DNA of 5,049 nt, from contig JAQTNI010000060.1 in assembly GCA_028713935.1 (NCBI GenBank), positions 1 to 5,049 of the forward strand, written 5' to 3'. Positions 1 through 5,049 of this stretch are shown piece by piece; the first letter of the stretch is position 1; every line of letters begins with the position of its first letter. The position numbers and the translations under genes are program-made. The DNA comes from Candidatus Iainarchaeum sp. (lineage in GTDB: Archaea > Iainarchaeota > Iainarchaeia > Iainarchaeales > GCA-2688035). The notes under the pieces are model-generated. The model did not search any database and was not told where the DNA came from. It saw only the letters and a program-made list of their open reading frames with translations.

Positions 1-358
1 CAAGGGCAAAATCAAAAACACTGTTTTTGAAAGGAAGATTCTGAATGTCCGCAACAACAAGCAGGGGCTCAGAGCCCATCTTTTTTGACAGCTGCCTCGC
101 ATTGAGCAGGTTTTCCTTGAGAATATCAACGCCTATGACCAAAGAAAAATTTTTGGAAAGGACAGGAAGCATTGCACCGCAGCCACAACCAAGGTCAACT
201 GCGACAGAATCCCTTTTTTTTCCAAAAAAAGAGGCAATTGTCAGCCCCAAATCTGCCATCCTTAACCTGTGCTCAAAGGCAATAAAAGAATGCTCATTGT
301 AGGCATAAGAACTGGCAAGAGCCCTTGAAAACAGGTCATCCGGCGGGAATTTTCGCAT
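1..358 (-). CDS. Class I SAM-dependent methyltransferase (N-terminal part; C-terminus runs off the left edge)
   Basis: Absent from the supplied ORF track because it has no stop in the window. Reverse complement from the ATG (complement of 356-358) reads without a stop: MRKFPPDDLFSRALASSYAYNEHSFIAFEHRLRMADLGLTIASFFGKKRDSVAVDLGCGCGAMLPVLSKNFSLVIGVDILKENLLNARQLSKKMGSEPLLVVADIQNLPFKNSVFDFAL. VDLGCGCG is the SAM-binding glycine loop (motif I). GVDI is the acidic post-I loop. ADIQNLPF..FDFA is the motif II/III region typical of Methyltransf_11/25-type enzymes. Confidence 0.85.
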   Translation of the reverse strand, partial: MRKFPPDDLFSRALASSYAYNEHSFIAFEHRLRMADLGLTIASFFGKKRDSVAVDLGCGCGAMLPVLSKNFSLVIGVDILKENLLNARQLSKKMGSEPLLVVADIQNLPFKNSVFDFAL

Positions 359-432: not shown

Positions 433-1377
433 GTGGTATTAATTCCTGCTTTTAACGAAGAAAAAACAATTGCCCGGGTAATAAAAGAAATTCCCAAAAA
501 AATTTTGGGGATAGGCGAAATAAAAATAATTGTGGTGAACGACGGGAGTTCAGACAGGACAATTGAAGAGGCAAAAAAAGCAGGGGCAGGCCTGGTTGTT
601 TCACATGAATCCAACAAGGGCCTGGGCGTTGCGTTCAGGACTGGAATCGAAAATGCATTAAAGGCTGGCGCTGACATTATTGTGAACATAGATGCCGACA
701 TGCAGTTCAATCCAAAAGACATTCCAAAAATAATACGGCCGATTCTTGATGGAAAGGCCGATTTTGTAACATGCACGAGATTCAAGGACAAAACGATTTC
801 CCCAGAAATGCCGTTCATCAAGAAATTCGGCAACAATGTTTTTACAAAACTGATTTCAATTCTTGCAAAGCAGAAATTTACAGACACGCAGTGCGGGTTC
901 AGGGCATACAGCAGGGAAACGGCACTGCACCTCAATCTCTTCGGAAAGCACACTTATACCCAGGAGGCATTGCTTGACGCAATTGAAAAAGGAATGCGCA
1001 TTGTGGAAGTCCCCTGCGTAGTGAAAGGCCAGCGCGAAGGAAAATCAAGGGTGGTTGAAAACTGGTTTGCTTATTCCACAAAAGCCCTGCTGATAATCAT
1101 AAGGACAGTGCGGGACCACAGGCCATTGGAATTCTTTGGAGGCATGGGTTTTGCATTGTTTGCAGCAGGAACAATAAGCGCACTATGGCTCTGGGCAAGG
1201 CTGCTTGCCGAACACATAATAGACCCTTTCATGTGGGTGGCATATGCGGATGTCATATTGATTGTCCTTGGGTTTCTTCTGGCTGTCCTGGCAATGATTG
1301 CCGACATGAACTCGCGGCAGAGAAAACTCACAGAAGAAATCCTTTACCGCATAAAAAAGCAGGAATTTGAAAAATAA
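433..1377 (+). CDS. Family 2 glycosyltransferase, polyprenyl/dolichyl-phosphate sugar synthase-like (DPM1/GtrB/ArnC-type), with a C-terminal two-helix membrane anchor
   Basis: 314-aa ORF. GTG 433 is the first canonical start after the in-frame stop at 403-405. GT-A hallmarks: VLIPAFNEE at the N-terminus, VVNDGSSDRT, the DXD motif NIDADMQF (GAT GCC GAC at 691-699), and TDTQCGFRAY. Two hydrophobic C-terminal segments (FFGGMGFALFAAGTISALWLWARLL and WVAYADVILIVLGFLLAVLAMIADM) match the anchor seen in polyprenyl-phosphate glycosyltransferases. Stop TAA at 1375-1377. Confidence 0.9.
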   Translation: MVLIPAFNEEKTIARVIKEIPKKILGIGEIKIIVVNDGSSDRTIEEAKKAGAGLVVSHESNKGLGVAFRTGIENALKAGADIIVNIDADMQFNPKDIPKIIRPILDGKADFVTCTRFKDKTISPEMPFIKKFGNNVFTKLISILAKQKFTDTQCGFRAYSRETALHLNLFGKHTYTQEALLDAIEKGMRIVEVPCVVKGQREGKSRVVENWFAYSTKALLIIIRTVRDHRPLEFFGGMGFALFAAGTISALWLWARLLAEHIIDPFMWVAYADVILIVLGFLLAVLAMIADMNSRQRKLTEEILYRIKKQEFEK

Positions 1378-1386: not shown

Positions 1387-2571
1387 TTGAACATTCTTTT
1401 TTTGAGCTCATCCTACCCGATTTTTGTAAAAGGCCACTGGCAGAACTGGAGCCCAAGGCATGAAACAGCAAAAAGGCTTGTGGAAAAAGGCATAAATGTT
1501 TTTGTGGTGGCGCCGCACACGGAAGGCGCTGCTTTTGAAGAAACAATAGACGGAGTAAAAATTTACAGGTTTGGAAAAAATGCGCCACTTGATTTCAGGA
1601 GAATAAGCCCTTTCGCAGTGCCTGTATACATGCACCAGTTTTATTCAAAGGCAAAAAAAGTCTGCGGGAAAAACAAAATAAGCCTGGTCCATGGCTTTTG
1701 GGCAATTCCAAGCGGAACAATAGCGGCAAGAATTGCAAAAGAATGCAAAATCCCGGGCATTGTTGAGCTTCTCGGAAGCGATGTGTTCCTGGGCCTGAAA
1801 AATTTCCTTACAAAAGGGCTTGTAAAAAACGCGATTGAAAAGGCGGATTACGTTTTTGCAGACGGCTACAGCCTAATTGATTTTGCAAAAAGCAGGGGCA
1901 TTAAAATCAGCAGAAGCTTCGTGCACTTCTACGAGCCTGAAATGCATGACCCTTCAAAGGAAAAAATACTTGAAATGAGAAAAAAATGGGGAATTGGCGA
2001 TAATGATTTTGTGCTAATGGTCAGCAGGTTCAAGGGAAAAATTTACGGCGCGGAATACGCGATAAGGGCCATGCCCGAAATACTGAAGGCGGTTCCAAAT
2101 GCAAAATTGCTTCTTGTTGGAAAAGCAGGGGATTATGAAAAGGCAATCGAGGAAGAAATAAAAAAATCAGGCGCAGAAAAAAACATTTCAAAAACAGGGT
2201 TTCTTGACAAGCAAGAATACTGGTGCGCATTAAAAATTTCAGATATCTACATAACACCTTCCCTTTCAGACAGCACTTCTGTGGGATTGCTTGAGGCAAT
2301 GTTTGCCGAAAAGCCAATTATTGCAACAGGCATAGGGGACAATCCATACTGGGTAAAAAACAATTCAAACGGAAAAATAATTCTCCCTGCAGACAGCCCG
2401 GAAATTGCCAGGGCAGTCATTGAACTTAAAAATTCGGATTTATCAAAAATCGGCGCTGCAAACAAAAAAAGCCTGGAAAAAGAGCACTGCACCTGGAAGG
2501 AAATAATAGAAAAATACATTGAAATATATGAAACCTGCATCAAGGAAAAACAAAGCCTTGGCAAAAATTAG
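1387..2571 (+). CDS. Family 4 (GT-B fold, GT1 superfamily) glycosyltransferase
   Basis: 394-aa ORF with a TTG start. The N-terminus MNILFLSSSYP is the usual GT4 first beta-strand/loop, which supports the TTG start. The C-terminal half carries the GT4 signature region PSLSDSTSVGLLEAMFAEKPIIATGIGDNPYWVKNNSNGKII. This is a D-x7-E variant of the E-x7-E motif, followed by the nucleotide-sugar binding loop. Stop TAG at 2569-2571. Confidence 0.9.
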   Translation: MNILFLSSSYPIFVKGHWQNWSPRHETAKRLVEKGINVFVVAPHTEGAAFEETIDGVKIYRFGKNAPLDFRRISPFAVPVYMHQFYSKAKKVCGKNKISLVHGFWAIPSGTIAARIAKECKIPGIVELLGSDVFLGLKNFLTKGLVKNAIEKADYVFADGYSLIDFAKSRGIKISRSFVHFYEPEMHDPSKEKILEMRKKWGIGDNDFVLMVSRFKGKIYGAEYAIRAMPEILKAVPNAKLLLVGKAGDYEKAIEEEIKKSGAEKNISKTGFLDKQEYWCALKISDIYITPSLSDSTSVGLLEAMFAEKPIIATGIGDNPYWVKNNSNGKIILPADSPEIARAVIELKNSDLSKIGAANKKSLEKEHCTWKEIIEKYIEIYETCIKEKQSLGKN

Positions 2572-2606: not shown

Positions 2607-2711
2607 ATGCAAAACCCAATCTTAAAATATCTTACGCCCAATCAAATATACAAGGCAAACAAAAAAAGCCATGGAAAATACTGCAGCGGGCCAATATGCC
2701 ATAAGGCTTGA
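2607..2711 (+). CDS. Candidate small ORF (34 aa) directly upstream of the radical SAM gene; speculative
   Basis: ATG 2607 to TGA 2709-2711 gives MQNPILKYLTPNQIYKANKKSHGKYCSGPICHKA. It ends 6 nt before the radical SAM ATG and is in the same frame. The peptide is basic with a C-terminal C-x4-C. No convincing Shine-Dalgarno site is present. In AT-rich sequence a 34-codon open stretch is not statistically remarkable. Confidence 0.2.
   Translation: MQNPILKYLTPNQIYKANKKSHGKYCSGPICHKA
2615..2651. repeat. Two-copy direct repeat CCCAATC-(0-2 nt)-AAA(A)TAT
   Basis: Copy 1 is CCCAATCTTAAAATATC (2615-2631) and copy 2 is CCCAATCAAATATAC (2637-2651). The copy starts are 22 bp apart, about two helical turns. 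Each copy abuts a TATA-like A/T block. Confidence 0.5.
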
Positions 2712-2717
2712 TTTTTT

Positions 2718-3776
2718 ATGAAAAAAGGGATAACTGGAATTTTCAAGGCTTCAAAAATTGCGAAGCAGGTGCTGATAAGCAAGATTACAGGGAAAAGGAT
2801 TCCAATTGCTGTGAACTTTCACCTGAATACAGACTGCAACCTGAGATGCAAATATTGCTATGCAAACGTTGACAGCAGGTTTGATTCGCATCCCGTGGAT
2901 TTGAACACTGAACAGGTTCTGGGCCTGATTGATGAAATGTACAAGGCGGGAACAAGATGGCTCATTCTTCTCGGGGGAGAACCATTGCTCAGGCAGGACA
3001 TAGGGGAGATTGTTGCGCATATAAAAAAGAAAGGCATTATCTGCGAAATTGTCACAAACGGAACTCTCGTAAAAAACAGGATTGACGCGATAAAGGATGT
3101 TGATTTGCTTTGCGTAAGCTGTGACGGTGACGAGATTGCAAATGACATTATGCGCGGTAACGGGACTTATAAGAAAATAGTCGAAGGAATAGGGGCGGCA
3201 AGTGCAAACGGGATTAACATAAGGATTCATGCGGTTCTTTCCCGCCATAACATAAATAAAAAGGCGCTTGACAGCCTTGTGGAACTGGCTGAAAAAAACA
3301 GGGCGACCCTTGGCTATTCAGTTGCAATAACCCACGAGTATAACAATATGCCAGAACTTAATGTTCCGGACAATGAAACAAGGGAATTCTGGAAAATGCT
3401 GAAGGAATACAAAAAAAAGGGAAAACCTGTTTACAACACCATTGCAGTGCTTGATTATCTTCTTGGCTGGCCAATTTCTTACCAAAAGGTAATAAAAAAA
3501 ATGGAAGACTGGCCTGACAAAAAATTCAGGCCAAGGCCTTGTTTTGCCGGCAAAAGAATGTGTTACATTGACTGCCAGGGTTTTGTGTATCCCTGCATTG
3601 TCCTTGGCGTTAAAAAAGGCCTTAATGTAAAAGAAGTCGGATTCAAAAAGGCATGGGATGCATTGGAATCTTTCAGCTGCGGAGCATGCGGTTTTCCGCA
3701 GTATATCGAGACAAACAATGTCCTTGATTTAAAGGCCCACAGCATTCTTCTGGGGTTAAAGACTTTTTTGAAATAA
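2718..3776 (+). CDS. Radical SAM enzyme with a truncated SPASM/twitch-like auxiliary Fe-S domain
   Basis: 352-aa ORF. The canonical CX3CX2C cluster motif is in NFHLNTDCNLRCKYCY (C40/C44/C47; TGC at 2835-2837 and 2856-2858). The GGEPLL SAM-binding motif is in LILLGGEPLLRQD. The C-terminus has six further Cys: CFAGKRMCYIDCQGFVYPC (which fits CX9-15GX4C) and then CGAC. Stop TAA at 3774-3776. Confidence 0.9.
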   Translation: MKKGITGIFKASKIAKQVLISKITGKRIPIAVNFHLNTDCNLRCKYCYANVDSRFDSHPVDLNTEQVLGLIDEMYKAGTRWLILLGGEPLLRQDIGEIVAHIKKKGIICEIVTNGTLVKNRIDAIKDVDLLCVSCDGDEIANDIMRGNGTYKKIVEGIGAASANGINIRIHAVLSRHNINKKALDSLVELAEKNRATLGYSVAITHEYNNMPELNVPDNETREFWKMLKEYKKKGKPVYNTIAVLDYLLGWPISYQKVIKKMEDWPDKKFRPRPCFAGKRMCYIDCQGFVYPCIVLGVKKGLNVKEVGFKKAWDALESFSCGACGFPQYIETNNVLDLKAHSILLGLKTFLK

Positions 3777-3787: not shown

Positions 3788-4801
3788 ATGAATGCTTATT
3801 GTGAAACGGATTTTAAAAATTTTTCAGTAAAAAAAGGCGGGAAAACCTTTTGCCATGCGGATTTTGACAATGGGCTCTGCTTTTCCGCCTTGTATTCCGC
3901 AGTGCCTTACCTGTTAAGCTTTTCAAGAGGGTCCTGGTTCAGCTGGGAAAAGGATAAAAATGCAGTGACTGCGGTATGTTCCGCTGGAATAATTGCCATG
4001 GAAATAAGAAAGCTTGAAAATAAAATGCAAATCCGGATAACAAAATCCTTTGGAAACTGCGCCAGAAACCACAAAGAGGGGGATTTGTTTTTTGCAAATA
4101 AAAAGGATTTTGATTGGAATGCGTTCAATTCAATTTTTCCGTTTTTGTTTGTTGGCACAAAAAAAACAAAAATTAAAATTTGCGCCAGCGATTCTGATGA
4201 AGCCTTTGAATTTTCAGGCCTTTGCAAAAAAAAAGATTCTTTTACAGGCGCCTGCGGCTTGAACAGCAGTATTAAGGAAAATGCCAGCGTAAGAGTTTCG
4301 GGAATGGCAAGAAAATGCAGGTACCAGAAAAAGGCAGGCCAAAGGTATTCCTTTGAAGAACTGATGCCAAAAAATTTCTGTGCTTTTGCATACTGCTCGG
4401 CCTATCCCCTTGCGCTTTCCCTTATTTACAATGGCAGGCCTCTTGGCTTGGATTCAAGAATTGTTTTCTGCCCCGGCTGCAGCAACAGGGTTAAAATGGA
4501 AATTTTTACAAGGCAGAGAAGAATGGCACCTGTTTACAACTTGGCTGAAAAGGCATTCAGATTTTTTGGAATTCCACAGGATGTAATCGAGAGAAAAGCA
4601 GTGGCGAGGGCTGTTGAAGTGACCGGGAAATGCCCTGCCGGAATAAAAAAGGGATTTGAAATAGAATTCAATTTTAATGACCAAAAAAAAATTTGCCCTG
4701 CATCGCTGTATACTCTTCTGCCACTGTTGGCAGGGGAAGGCGAAGGCGAAAAGTGCTCTTGCCCGAGCATTTTGTGCAGGGTAGAATACGAGGTAAAATA
4801 A
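3788..4801 (+). CDS. Cysteine-rich protein of unknown function with four tandem TIGR04076-like modules
   Basis: 337-aa ORF with a good SD site and 18 Cys (5.3%). There is no signal peptide or obvious TM segment. Four internally homologous modules are visible: residues 1-77, 80-143, 166-243 and 272-337. From memory, the shared pattern resembles the ~90-aa TIGR04076 family. That pattern is G/K-x-C, then K-x-G-x-x-F/Y, then a Cys followed by a hydrophobic Pro-containing helix, then Gly, then a late Cys and a beta-strand ending in E. An HMM search is needed to confirm the family. Stop TAA at 4799-4801. Confidence 0.8.
   Translation: MNAYCETDFKNFSVKKGGKTFCHADFDNGLCFSALYSAVPYLLSFSRGSWFSWEKDKNAVTAVCSAGIIAMEIRKLENKMQIRITKSFGNCARNHKEGDLFFANKKDFDWNAFNSIFPFLFVGTKKTKIKICASDSDEAFEFSGLCKKKDSFTGACGLNSSIKENASVRVSGMARKCRYQKKAGQRYSFEELMPKNFCAFAYCSAYPLALSLIYNGRPLGLDSRIVFCPGCSNRVKMEIFTRQRRMAPVYNLAEKAFRFFGIPQDVIERKAVARAVEVTGKCPAGIKKGFEIEFNFNDQKKICPASLYTLLPLLAGEGEGEKCSCPSILCRVEYEVK
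4790..4794 (+). promoter_or_regulatory. Shine-Dalgarno site for the epimerase/dehydratase gene
   Basis: GAGGT lies 9 nt upstream of ATG 4804, inside the end of the preceding gene. Confidence 0.55.
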
Positions 4802-4803
4802 GT

Positions 4804-5049
4804 ATGGGCAGAAAGCCGAATATTCTTGTAATAGGGGCAACTGGTTTTATCGGAAGCCGGCTTGTAAAAAGACTTGTTGAGCACGGCAATAAACCCAGGA
4901 TTCTGGCAAGAAAACAAAGCAATCTTGCCTTGCTCAGTGAAATTGACAAAAAAAAAATTGAAATTTTTTACGGGGATGTCACAAACAAAGGGCAATTAAG
5001 AAAAGCGATAAGGGGAAGCGATTATGTTTTCAATATTTCAGGTGTTTTG
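4804..5049 (+). CDS. NAD(P)-dependent epimerase/dehydratase (extended SDR), N-terminal part; continues past the right edge
   Basis: Absent from the ORF track because it has no stop in the window. ATG 4804 lies 2 nt after the upstream stop. Translation: MGRKPNILVIGATGFIGSRLVKRLVEHGNKPRILARKQSNLALLSEIDKKKIEIFYGDVTNKGQLRKAIRGSDYVFNISGV. It has the Rossmann GxxGxxG motif (GATGFIGS), the acidic/basic end of beta-2, and D-V-T followed by V-F-N-x-S-G. This layout is typical of sugar-nucleotide epimerases, dehydratases and reductases. Confidence 0.85.
   Translation, partial: MGRKPNILVIGATGFIGSRLVKRLVEHGNKPRILARKQSNLALLSEIDKKKIEIFYGDVTNKGQLRKAIRGSDYVFNISGVL

Follow-up and report, generated by a model that had tools for sequence, protein, structure and literature searches.

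A four-module TIGR04076-repeat protein encoded next to a radical SAM enzyme in a Candidatus Iainarchaeum contig

The window analysed here is the entire contig JAQTNI010000060.1 (5,049 nt) of a metagenome-assembled genome (MAG) of Candidatus Iainarchaeum sp., which is taken to belong to Iainarchaeota, within DPANN. Its open reading frame (ORF) 3788-4801 encodes a protein of 337 residues, in which an initial annotation, made from the letters alone, had noticed a four-fold repeat of a small Cys-containing module. This four-fold repeat is real. The ORF product is cytoplasmic and has the architecture (A-B)S-(A-B)L, that is, two types of module (A and B) alternating within two types of two-module unit (S and L). 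It is a divergent member of a known, uncharacterised family, TIGR04076, and its architecture is not unique. The label found at NCBI for this protein, and for the two orthologues that were looked up, is 'hypothetical protein' only. The gene adjoins those of a radical S-adenosylmethionine (SAM) enzyme, hereafter rSAM, and of a member of the short-chain dehydrogenase/reductase (SDR) superfamily, with which its product could cooperate in the modification of a sugar.

Evidence for the four-fold repeat

The presence of four TIGR04076-type modules in the ORF is borne out by the family hidden Markov model (HMM), by orthologue profiles, by an AlphaFold2 model and by the typing of relatives. Indeed (i) the NCBIfam model TIGR04076, which is 91 positions long, matches the whole protein in three stretches with 63.4 bits (E=2.2e-17; curated cutoff 33), in agreement with the two to four separate domain matches that had been expected of such a scan, and it scores 46.6-71.1 bits in the orthologues; (ii) TIGR04076 is also the top match of each of the four segments scanned separately, all of them below the cutoff of 33 when taken individually (module 1, E=0.012, 16.1 bits; module 2, E=6.2e-4, 20.3 bits; module 3, E=7.1e-6, 26.5 bits; module 4, E=0.039, 14.5 bits); (iii) module profiles made from nine full-length orthologues align with one another in hhalign (module 2 with module 4, P=4.3e-8; module 1 with module 3, P=2.5e-5; module 3 with module 4, P=6.9e-5; module 1 with module 4, P=7.5e-4); and (iv) in the AlphaFold2 model of the full protein, computed from nine sequences (predicted local distance difference test score, pLDDT, 85.8; predicted template modelling score, pTM, 0.87), the order strand-strand-helix-strand-strand recurs four times, module 1 being without its first strand. 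Additional helices are predicted at residues 155-165 and 247-259, and a separate model of the L unit reached a pLDDT of 91.2 and a pTM of 0.82.

At the level of the single sequence the resemblance is faint, module-to-module identity within the protein being only about 25% by BLAST and Smith-Waterman alignment. The comparison of the protein with itself, which had been proposed as a check, did not suffice to establish the repeat: against 2000 shuffles, Smith-Waterman scores were weakly significant for modules 1 and 4 (p=0.002), 3 and 4 (p=0.027) and 1 and 3 (p=0.042), and the pairs that include module 2 gave no significant similarity, so that a test of the RADAR or dot-plot type would barely be passed. 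These mostly non-significant pairwise tests are what could be said for a chance or compositional pattern in a Cys-rich ORF without any true repeat, an explanation that is effectively refuted by the match of the family HMM to all four segments, by profile-profile P-values down to 4e-8, by the secondary-structure order repeated in a confident model and by independent HMMs that type 64/64 four-module relatives in the same way (see below). The nucleotide sequences of the modules are not visibly repeated, as stated initially, and no DNA-level repeat was found in the gene; the duplication is therefore old, as was also proposed. Runs of 8-9 A occur within the repeat gene, at 4160-4235 and 4680-4692; its frame is intact and agrees with the orthologues, so that nothing points to a frameshift error despite these runs.

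Module types, units and conserved cysteines

HMMER, run exhaustively over 1.84 billion representatives (E<=1e-3), returned 219 relatives, the closest of which is only 38% identical to the repeat protein; the identity of the full-length orthologues is 26-38%. A word-indexed homologue search retrieved the protein itself only when started from the single sequence, 2 matches from the nine-orthologue profile and 3 matches from the module profile, and a scan for related loci with five sequences found one genome locus and three metagenome loci only. Module counts and the A/B and S/L typing given below cover the best 150 of the 219 relatives. According to a module HMM made for this purpose, these include 64 four-module, 26 three-module and 59 two-module proteins. 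A protein of 1933 aa (P0096) was rejected as a relative: it is a low-complexity tandem-repeat protein that owes its E-value of 2.7e-12 to 13 short stretches, a false positive arising from Cys/Pro-rich repeats.

Each of the best 150 except P0096, that is, each of the 149 genuine relatives, has two to four modules, and this does not fit the earlier description of the ORF as a tandem fusion within a normally single-domain family, nor the earlier statement that TIGR04076 proteins normally stand alone with about 90 aa, a feature that the 337-residue, four-module protein does not share. The family name used by JGI is 'uncharacterized repeat protein (TIGR04076 family)', and a stand-alone single-domain architecture is probably not a defining feature of TIGR04076. 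P0151, at first sight a single-module protein, corresponds to the final module of a split S-L locus, L019, in which the four-module reading frame (338-1501) is broken by in-frame stops and gene calling separates the L unit into an A module of 129 aa and a B module of 101 aa. This locus could represent a pseudogene or a genuinely split version, or contain a sequencing error, and it indicates that 'single-module' database entries can be fragments.

The typing of the modules relied on A and B HMMs built solely from the first and second modules, respectively, of stand-alone two-module proteins. With these HMMs the protein of the window is typed A, B, A, B, and so are 64/64 four-module relatives at each position, the margin averaging about 25-30 bits. 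The alternation of a long form (modules 1 and 3) and a short form (modules 2 and 4) noticed at first sight corresponds to this A-B-A-B order. Two kinds of A-B pair exist, and each is also known as a separate protein of about 180 aa: the S unit, with an A-B junction of 5-15 residues (9 stand-alone representatives), and the L unit, with a helical A-B linker of about 30 residues (50 stand-alone representatives). The split between S and L persists when the A modules alone are scored, without the linkers. All 64 four-module relatives combine one S unit with one L unit, 34 of them (including the protein of the window) in the order S-L and 30 in the order L-S; neither S-S nor L-L was found. The suggested duplication of a two-module unit accordingly holds as far as the two A-B pairs and their alternating forms are concerned and fails as a simple internal duplication, the two pairs being S and L paralogues. 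Since one S unit is joined to one L unit in either order, a fusion of two long-diverged two-module paralogues is implied, and the occurrence of both orders indicates that the fusion arose at least twice, or with permutation. By the Rosetta-stone argument, fusion in both orders also suggests that S and L units work together.

A set of hallmark cysteines was derived from the relatives in this analysis, not from the TIGRFAM description. It consists of a triad, with one Cys after strand 1, a second one capping the helix (C-P-x-x-F...P) and a third one belonging to a C-P that precedes the last strand. Across 452 modules, and counting the modules in which the column is aligned, these three residues are kept in 381/383, 400/441 and 374/391 cases, respectively, and the second and third are each accompanied by a conserved Pro. 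In A modules the triad is preceded, about 20 residues ahead of its first Cys, by a fourth Cys, present in 51/58 stand-alone A modules and in 60/62 third modules. In the four-module relatives the L unit has full triads in 55/64 A modules and 61/64 B modules. The S unit is decayed in both fusion orders, its A module lacking the first Cys in 34/64 cases and its B module lacking the second and third Cys in 37/64.

The protein of the window follows this pattern. Module 1, which bears the motif WFSWEKDKNAV, is devoid of strand 1 and of the first Cys of the triad but retains C5, C31 and C64; module 2 keeps C91 as its sole triad Cys, with W111 at the position of the second. The Cys sets of the L unit are complete, with C177, C198 and C228 plus C156 for module 3 and C282, C303 and C325 plus C330 for module 4. 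All twelve of these cysteines (C5, C31, C64, C91, C156, C177, C198, C228, C282, C303, C325 and C330) are invariant in nine orthologues. Of the anchors proposed initially, the K-x-G-x-x-aromatic motif, the Cys with a Pro-containing helix and the late Cys are in register in a 36-module alignment; the set of early cysteines holds except for C5. Indeed, C5 is not the counterpart of C91, C177 and C282 that it had been taken for, because module 1 lost strand 1 together with its Cys: C5 aligns with C156, both being the extra N-terminal Cys of A-type modules. C133 of module 2, another proposed anchor, is not conserved among orthologues.

Two further cysteines are lineage-specific. C204 (nt 4397-4399) lies 5 residues past the helix-capping Cys, where about half of the A-type modules carry His, and C22 (nt 3851-3853) lies near the site of the lost first triad Cys of module 1. 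Both may be compensatory ligand changes.

Gene neighbourhood and the partner radical SAM enzyme

The features of the window are listed in Table 1. The last three genes are tightly packed, with 11 bp between the rSAM gene and the repeat gene and 2 bp between the repeat gene and the epimerase gene. Scans of the window with Rfam and for tRNAs detected no RNA family and no tRNA.

Table 1. Genes of the window and segments of the four-module repeat protein
Feature	Position (nt)	Strand	Basis and remarks
Class I SAM-dependent methyltransferase, N-terminal part	1..358	-	Runs off contig; divergent orientation; Pfam Methyltransf_11 and Methyltransf_25
GT2 glycosyltransferase, AglJ-like (below cutoff)	433..1377	+	Gene string shared with repeat gene; profile matches
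GT4 glycosyltransferase	1387..2571	+	Gene string shared with repeat gene; profile matches
Radical SAM enzyme (rSAM), 352 aa	2718..3776	+	Pfam Radical_SAM, 85 bits
Four-module TIGR04076-repeat protein, 337 aa, S unit + L unit	3788..4801	+	Stop codon 4799-4801
Module 1, A-type, S unit, residues 1-76	3788..4015	+	A-HMM 28.1 vs B-HMM 18.2 bits; S-type 48.6 vs L-type 11.7 bits
Module 2, B-type, S unit, degenerate, residues 79-144	4022..4219	+	B-HMM 35.1 vs A-HMM 7.2 bits
S-L unit junction, residues 145-164	4220..4279	+	Invariant C156; helix 155-165 (AlphaFold2)
Module 3, A-type, L unit, residues 165-243	4280..4516	+	A-HMM 85.1 vs B-HMM 29.2 bits
Helical A-B linker of L unit, residues 244-268	4517..4591	+	Helix 247-259; conserved PQD motif; D265 invariant in nine orthologues
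Module 4, B-type, L unit, residues 269-337	4592..4798	+	B-HMM 70.8 vs A-HMM 7.3 bits
NAD-dependent epimerase/dehydratase (SDR superfamily), N-terminus	4804..5049	+	Runs off contig; Pfam Epimerase, NAD_binding_10 and NmrA

The rSAM (2718-3776) has a CX3CX2C motif (C40/C44/C47) and four C-terminal cysteines (C275, C293, C321 and C324), all invariant in 7 orthologues, and a weak SPASM-like C-terminus (Pfam SPASM, 17.4 bits; cutoff 21.5). It has the cysteine pattern of twitch/SPASM enzymes, namely the radical SAM motif and, towards the C-terminus, a set of cysteines suited to an auxiliary cluster, in a layout that resembles the single-auxiliary-cluster 'twitch' of BtrN. Its nearest solved relatives in the PDB, over the core only, are viperin-like enzymes, the cytosylglucuronate decarboxylase BlsE, PqqE and MoaA. 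All its NCBIfam matches are far below the curated cutoffs, including those to the peptide maturases StsB, MftC and PqqE; it does not belong to the PTO1314 family TIGR03961, its best match (109.4 bits; cutoff 306), for which nothing was found in the searchable literature. A 34-aa ORF with a Cys-containing C-terminus, MQNPILKYLTPNQIYKANKKSHGKYCSGPICHKA (2607-2711, plus strand), ends 6 bp ahead of the rSAM start, in an AT-rich gap of 146 bp. It was considered as a precursor peptide of the rSAM and rejected: orthologous rSAM genes elsewhere have no counterpart upstream (L006, L010, L015, L016 and L018), and in L001 and L008 there is no room for one.

An orthologous rSAM (43-56% identity over the full length) adjoins the repeat gene in L001, L006/L007, L008, L010, L012 and L018, and a fragment of such an enzyme, 36% identical, does so in L011; in L015/16 the rSAM is one gene away. 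Conservation is higher in the rSAM than in the repeat protein (26-38%), the two genes often overlap by 1-8 bp and the gene order of the cassette varies: L012, for example, has the SDR gene first, then a repeat gene coding for a stand-alone L unit and then the rSAM gene, and in L018 the rSAM lies downstream of an SDR-repeat fusion. Other types of rSAM, B12-binding or with SPASM, flank the repeat gene in L003, L004, L005, L013/14 and L017. In L001 (350-1411 and 2958-4013) and L010 (4136-5203 and 6918-7994), two paralogues of the partner rSAM, 44-52% identical, occur with one repeat protein; these two loci also carry three to five B12-binding radical SAM genes.

An SDR or epimerase gene adjoins the repeat gene in the window, L002, L008, L011, L012 and L019, and the epimerases of L002 and L008, downstream of the repeat gene, are orthologous to that of the window (42-47% identity). 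Natural fusions of an SDR with a repeat protein are known (P0031 and P0099). In another natural fusion (P0014, encoded in L017, 18-1982), the repeat protein is followed at its C-terminus by a DUF362 domain and two 4Fe-4S ferredoxin motifs, and a gene for DUF362 with a two-cluster ferredoxin lies directly upstream of the repeat gene in L015 (2683-3873) and L016 (1834-3024), between it and the rSAM gene. DUF362 is in the same Pfam clan as the N-terminal domain of LarA (PMC11770544). Nothing on DUF362 together with radical SAM enzymes was found in the searchable literature.

The wider clusters comprise GT2 glycosyltransferases, methyltransferases (also in L002, L008, L013 and L015), GT-C-like polytopic membrane proteins, thiamine pyrophosphate-dependent E1 subunits and many B12-rSAM genes. 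The cassette of rSAM, repeat protein and SDR/epimerase is found in such glycosyltransferase- and rSAM-rich clusters in Iainarchaeota, Altiarchaeota (L002) and Promethearchaeota (a MAG, L010). A gene for a polytopic membrane protein of about 480-500 aa lies, in convergent orientation, just downstream of the repeat gene in L001 (5086-6531), L003 (3524-4954), L004 (9044-10540) and L010 (9216-10718), in each case on the minus strand. These proteins are 41-56% identical among loci and have no Pfam match; they are probably GT-C-type glycosyltransferases, and related membrane proteins in L008 and L010 have weak matches to PMT_2 and GT87. A full-length PurH-like gene (AICARFT_IMPCHas plus MGS, about 510 aa) lies beside the cassette in L008 (3215-4744), L011 (2411-3940), L013 (7612-9162) and L014 (1775-2434).

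Proposed function and comparison with known systems

Four observations, namely the near-absolute conservation of the cysteines, the asymmetry between a conserved L unit and a decayed S unit, the fusions to ferredoxin and SDR and the constant neighbourhood of Fe-S enzymes, point to a Cys-ligated metal, most likely Fe-S, accessory subunit of a sugar-modifying rSAM/SDR system. This reading is put forward tentatively, our confidence in it falling just short of even, on the basis of sequence conservation and gene context. In brief, the Cys sets would bind metal, most likely as Fe-S clusters; the decayed S unit would be the structural half of a pseudo-heterodimer; and the repeat protein would be a dedicated accessory subunit of the neighbouring twitch-type rSAM, which it could supply with electrons or relieve of them, and/or hold together with the SDR. 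The enzymes might then modify a nucleotide-sugar or a lipid-linked sugar destined for the cell envelope.

Several points speak against this proposal. The repeat protein contains no recognised Fe-S or Zn motif or family and matches no Pfam family at E<=1; neither the protein nor the 36-module profile has a sequence match in the PDB; and Foldseek gave no credible match in the PDB for either of the two confident models, the best E-value for the L-unit model being 0.49. The best Foldseek match of the full model, to sliding clamps (E 0.018), was discarded as spurious, with a TM-score of about 0.1. In addition, L003, L004 and L005 have no orthologous rSAM adjacent to the repeat gene and carry other rSAM types there, the recurring partnership with an SDR could reflect cooperation at the level of the substrate instead of the electron, and Zn(Cys)3-4 sites would give the same pattern of conservation.

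This last point leads to an unlikely alternative, in which the protein would be a non-redox scaffold with structural zinc in Cys3-4 sites, only bridging or orienting the rSAM and the SDR or recruiting them to the membrane glycosylation machinery. Cys3/Cys4 and Cys3His-like patterns suit Zn as well as Fe-S, the loss of cysteines tolerated by the S unit, that is, by half of the protein, is as expected of a structural role, and the SDR fusion suggests a physical adaptor. A zinc scaffold would, however, leave aside that the protein is fused to, or encoded beside, DUF362 with a two-cluster ferredoxin and that Fe-S enzymes are its constant associates; in addition, the hosts encountered (DPANN, Altiarchaeota and Asgard archaea) are reputed to be anaerobes.

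The B modules, with only three strictly conserved cysteines as in clusters that have a substrate-binding iron, recall a different role, which is considered improbable: the repeat protein could itself be an enzyme, in which a [4Fe-4S] cluster held by three Cys, one of its irons being open, would act on a sugar intermediate (in the manner of a dehydratase, a reductase or a sulfur-transfer enzyme), in series with the rSAM and the SDR. The conserved three-gene cassette is compatible with three catalytic steps. However, apart from Cys, Pro, Gly and aromatics, no polar residues that could be catalytic are conserved in the 36-module alignment. With 65-77 aa the modules are small, and the Foldseek comparison of the two models with the PDB revealed no similarity to any enzyme fold.

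It is very improbable that the repeat protein is the substrate of the rSAM, that is, a Cys-rich precursor that is cross-linked or processed as in ribosomally synthesised and post-translationally modified peptides (RiPPs), or a cofactor precursor as in the pyrroloquinoline quinone (PQQ) and mycofactocin pathways. Such a role would suit a Cys-rich, repetitive protein encoded right beside an rSAM that has a SPASM/twitch-like C-terminus and sub-threshold matches to StsB, MftC and PqqE, but it agrees poorly with a confidently folded globular protein of 337 aa (pLDDT 86-91) without leader/core layout, with modules so diverged (about 25% identity) that they are not conserved cores, with the existing fusions to enzymes (SDR and DUF362-ferredoxin) and with an rSAM core that is nearest to nucleotide- or nucleoside-sugar-modifying enzymes (viperin-like, BlsE and MoaA). 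The sole small ORF upstream of the rSAM (2607-2711) is, likewise, not conserved in other loci.

The accessory-subunit reading can be extended to the whole family in a form that is possible, though doubtful. The TIGR04076-repeat proteins might constitute a class of multi-centre Fe-S proteins that has so far escaped recognition and has its own fold, in which S and L would form an obligate pseudo-heterodimer of a decayed and a cofactor-bearing half, and which would act as the electron-transfer or adaptor subunit dedicated to a three-part rSAM/repeat protein/SDR machine making a modified envelope sugar or glycolipid in DPANN, Altiarchaeota and Asgard archaea. If the Cys sets do hold Fe-S clusters, this would be a new electron-carrier or adaptor fold for radical SAM chemistry, and the cassette would offer a way into an envelope-glycan or glycolipid pathway, so far uncharacterised, that is common to Iainarchaeota, Altiarchaeota and Promethearchaeota. 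A family hitherto present in databases by name only gains an anatomy, with A and B modules, S and L units fused in both orders and a decayed half next to a proposed cofactor-bearing half, as well as a testable set of partners, a specific twitch-type rSAM and an SDR. Furthermore, the protein of the window and the two orthologues annotated as 'hypothetical protein' could be renamed TIGR04076-repeat proteins, with a link to the rSAM that accompanies them. Neither the S/L hetero-fusion rule nor the rSAM/repeat protein/SDR cassette has, to judge from the searchable literature, been described before.

Compared with the TIGR04076 family as defined in NCBIfam, the protein of the window has the same Cys/Pro hallmarks, a whole-protein score above the cutoff and four modules that all match the profile; it differs by the alternation of A and B modules, the S and L units, one degenerate module and single modules that score below the cutoff. 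For TIGR04076 itself there is no Pfam model, no solved structure was matched in the PDB by sequence or by Foldseek, and the searchable literature has only two mentions of it, both in passing, with no function assigned.

Ferredoxins and SPASM/twitch auxiliary domains provide radical SAM enzymes with small electron carriers of the Fe-S type. The repeat protein resembles them by its Cys-ligated candidate sites, its adjacency to an rSAM and its fusion or adjacency to a two-cluster ferredoxin. It contains no CxxCxxCxxxCP motif and has no Fer4 or SPASM match in Pfam at E<=1 and, in contrast to ferredoxins, the cysteines of each of its sites are spread over about 50-70 residues of a strand-strand-helix-strand-strand module.

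A second comparison concerns PqqD/RRE-type (RiPP recognition element) partners and the mycofactocin system, which consists of MftB/MftC, the GT2 glycosyltransferase MftF and dedicated SDRs. The shared features are a small partner, here proposed to be non-catalytic, encoded beside an rSAM with a C-terminal auxiliary-cluster domain, and, for mycofactocin, the GT2, methyltransferase and SDR genes nearby, together with weak matches to MftC (86 bits; cutoff 265) and MftF (E=2e-4). The differences are the lack of sequence or fold similarity to PqqD, the lack of a conserved precursor peptide gene and matches that are far below the cutoffs.

Finally, radical SAM enzymes also act with SDRs, or on nucleotides, in sugar and nucleotide systems such as AprD4/AprD3, which carries out the C3' deoxygenation in apramycin biosynthesis, and viperin-type nucleotide dehydration. 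To our knowledge, these systems have no third component of the TIGR04076 type, and the NCBIfam matches, all far below the cutoffs, do not show orthology of the window's proteins to AprD4, AprD3 or viperin; the repeat protein belongs neither to these families nor to those of the small Fe-S partners. The likeness to the AprD4/AprD3 pair lies in the grouping of genes for an rSAM and an NAD(P)-dependent SDR within a carbohydrate context.

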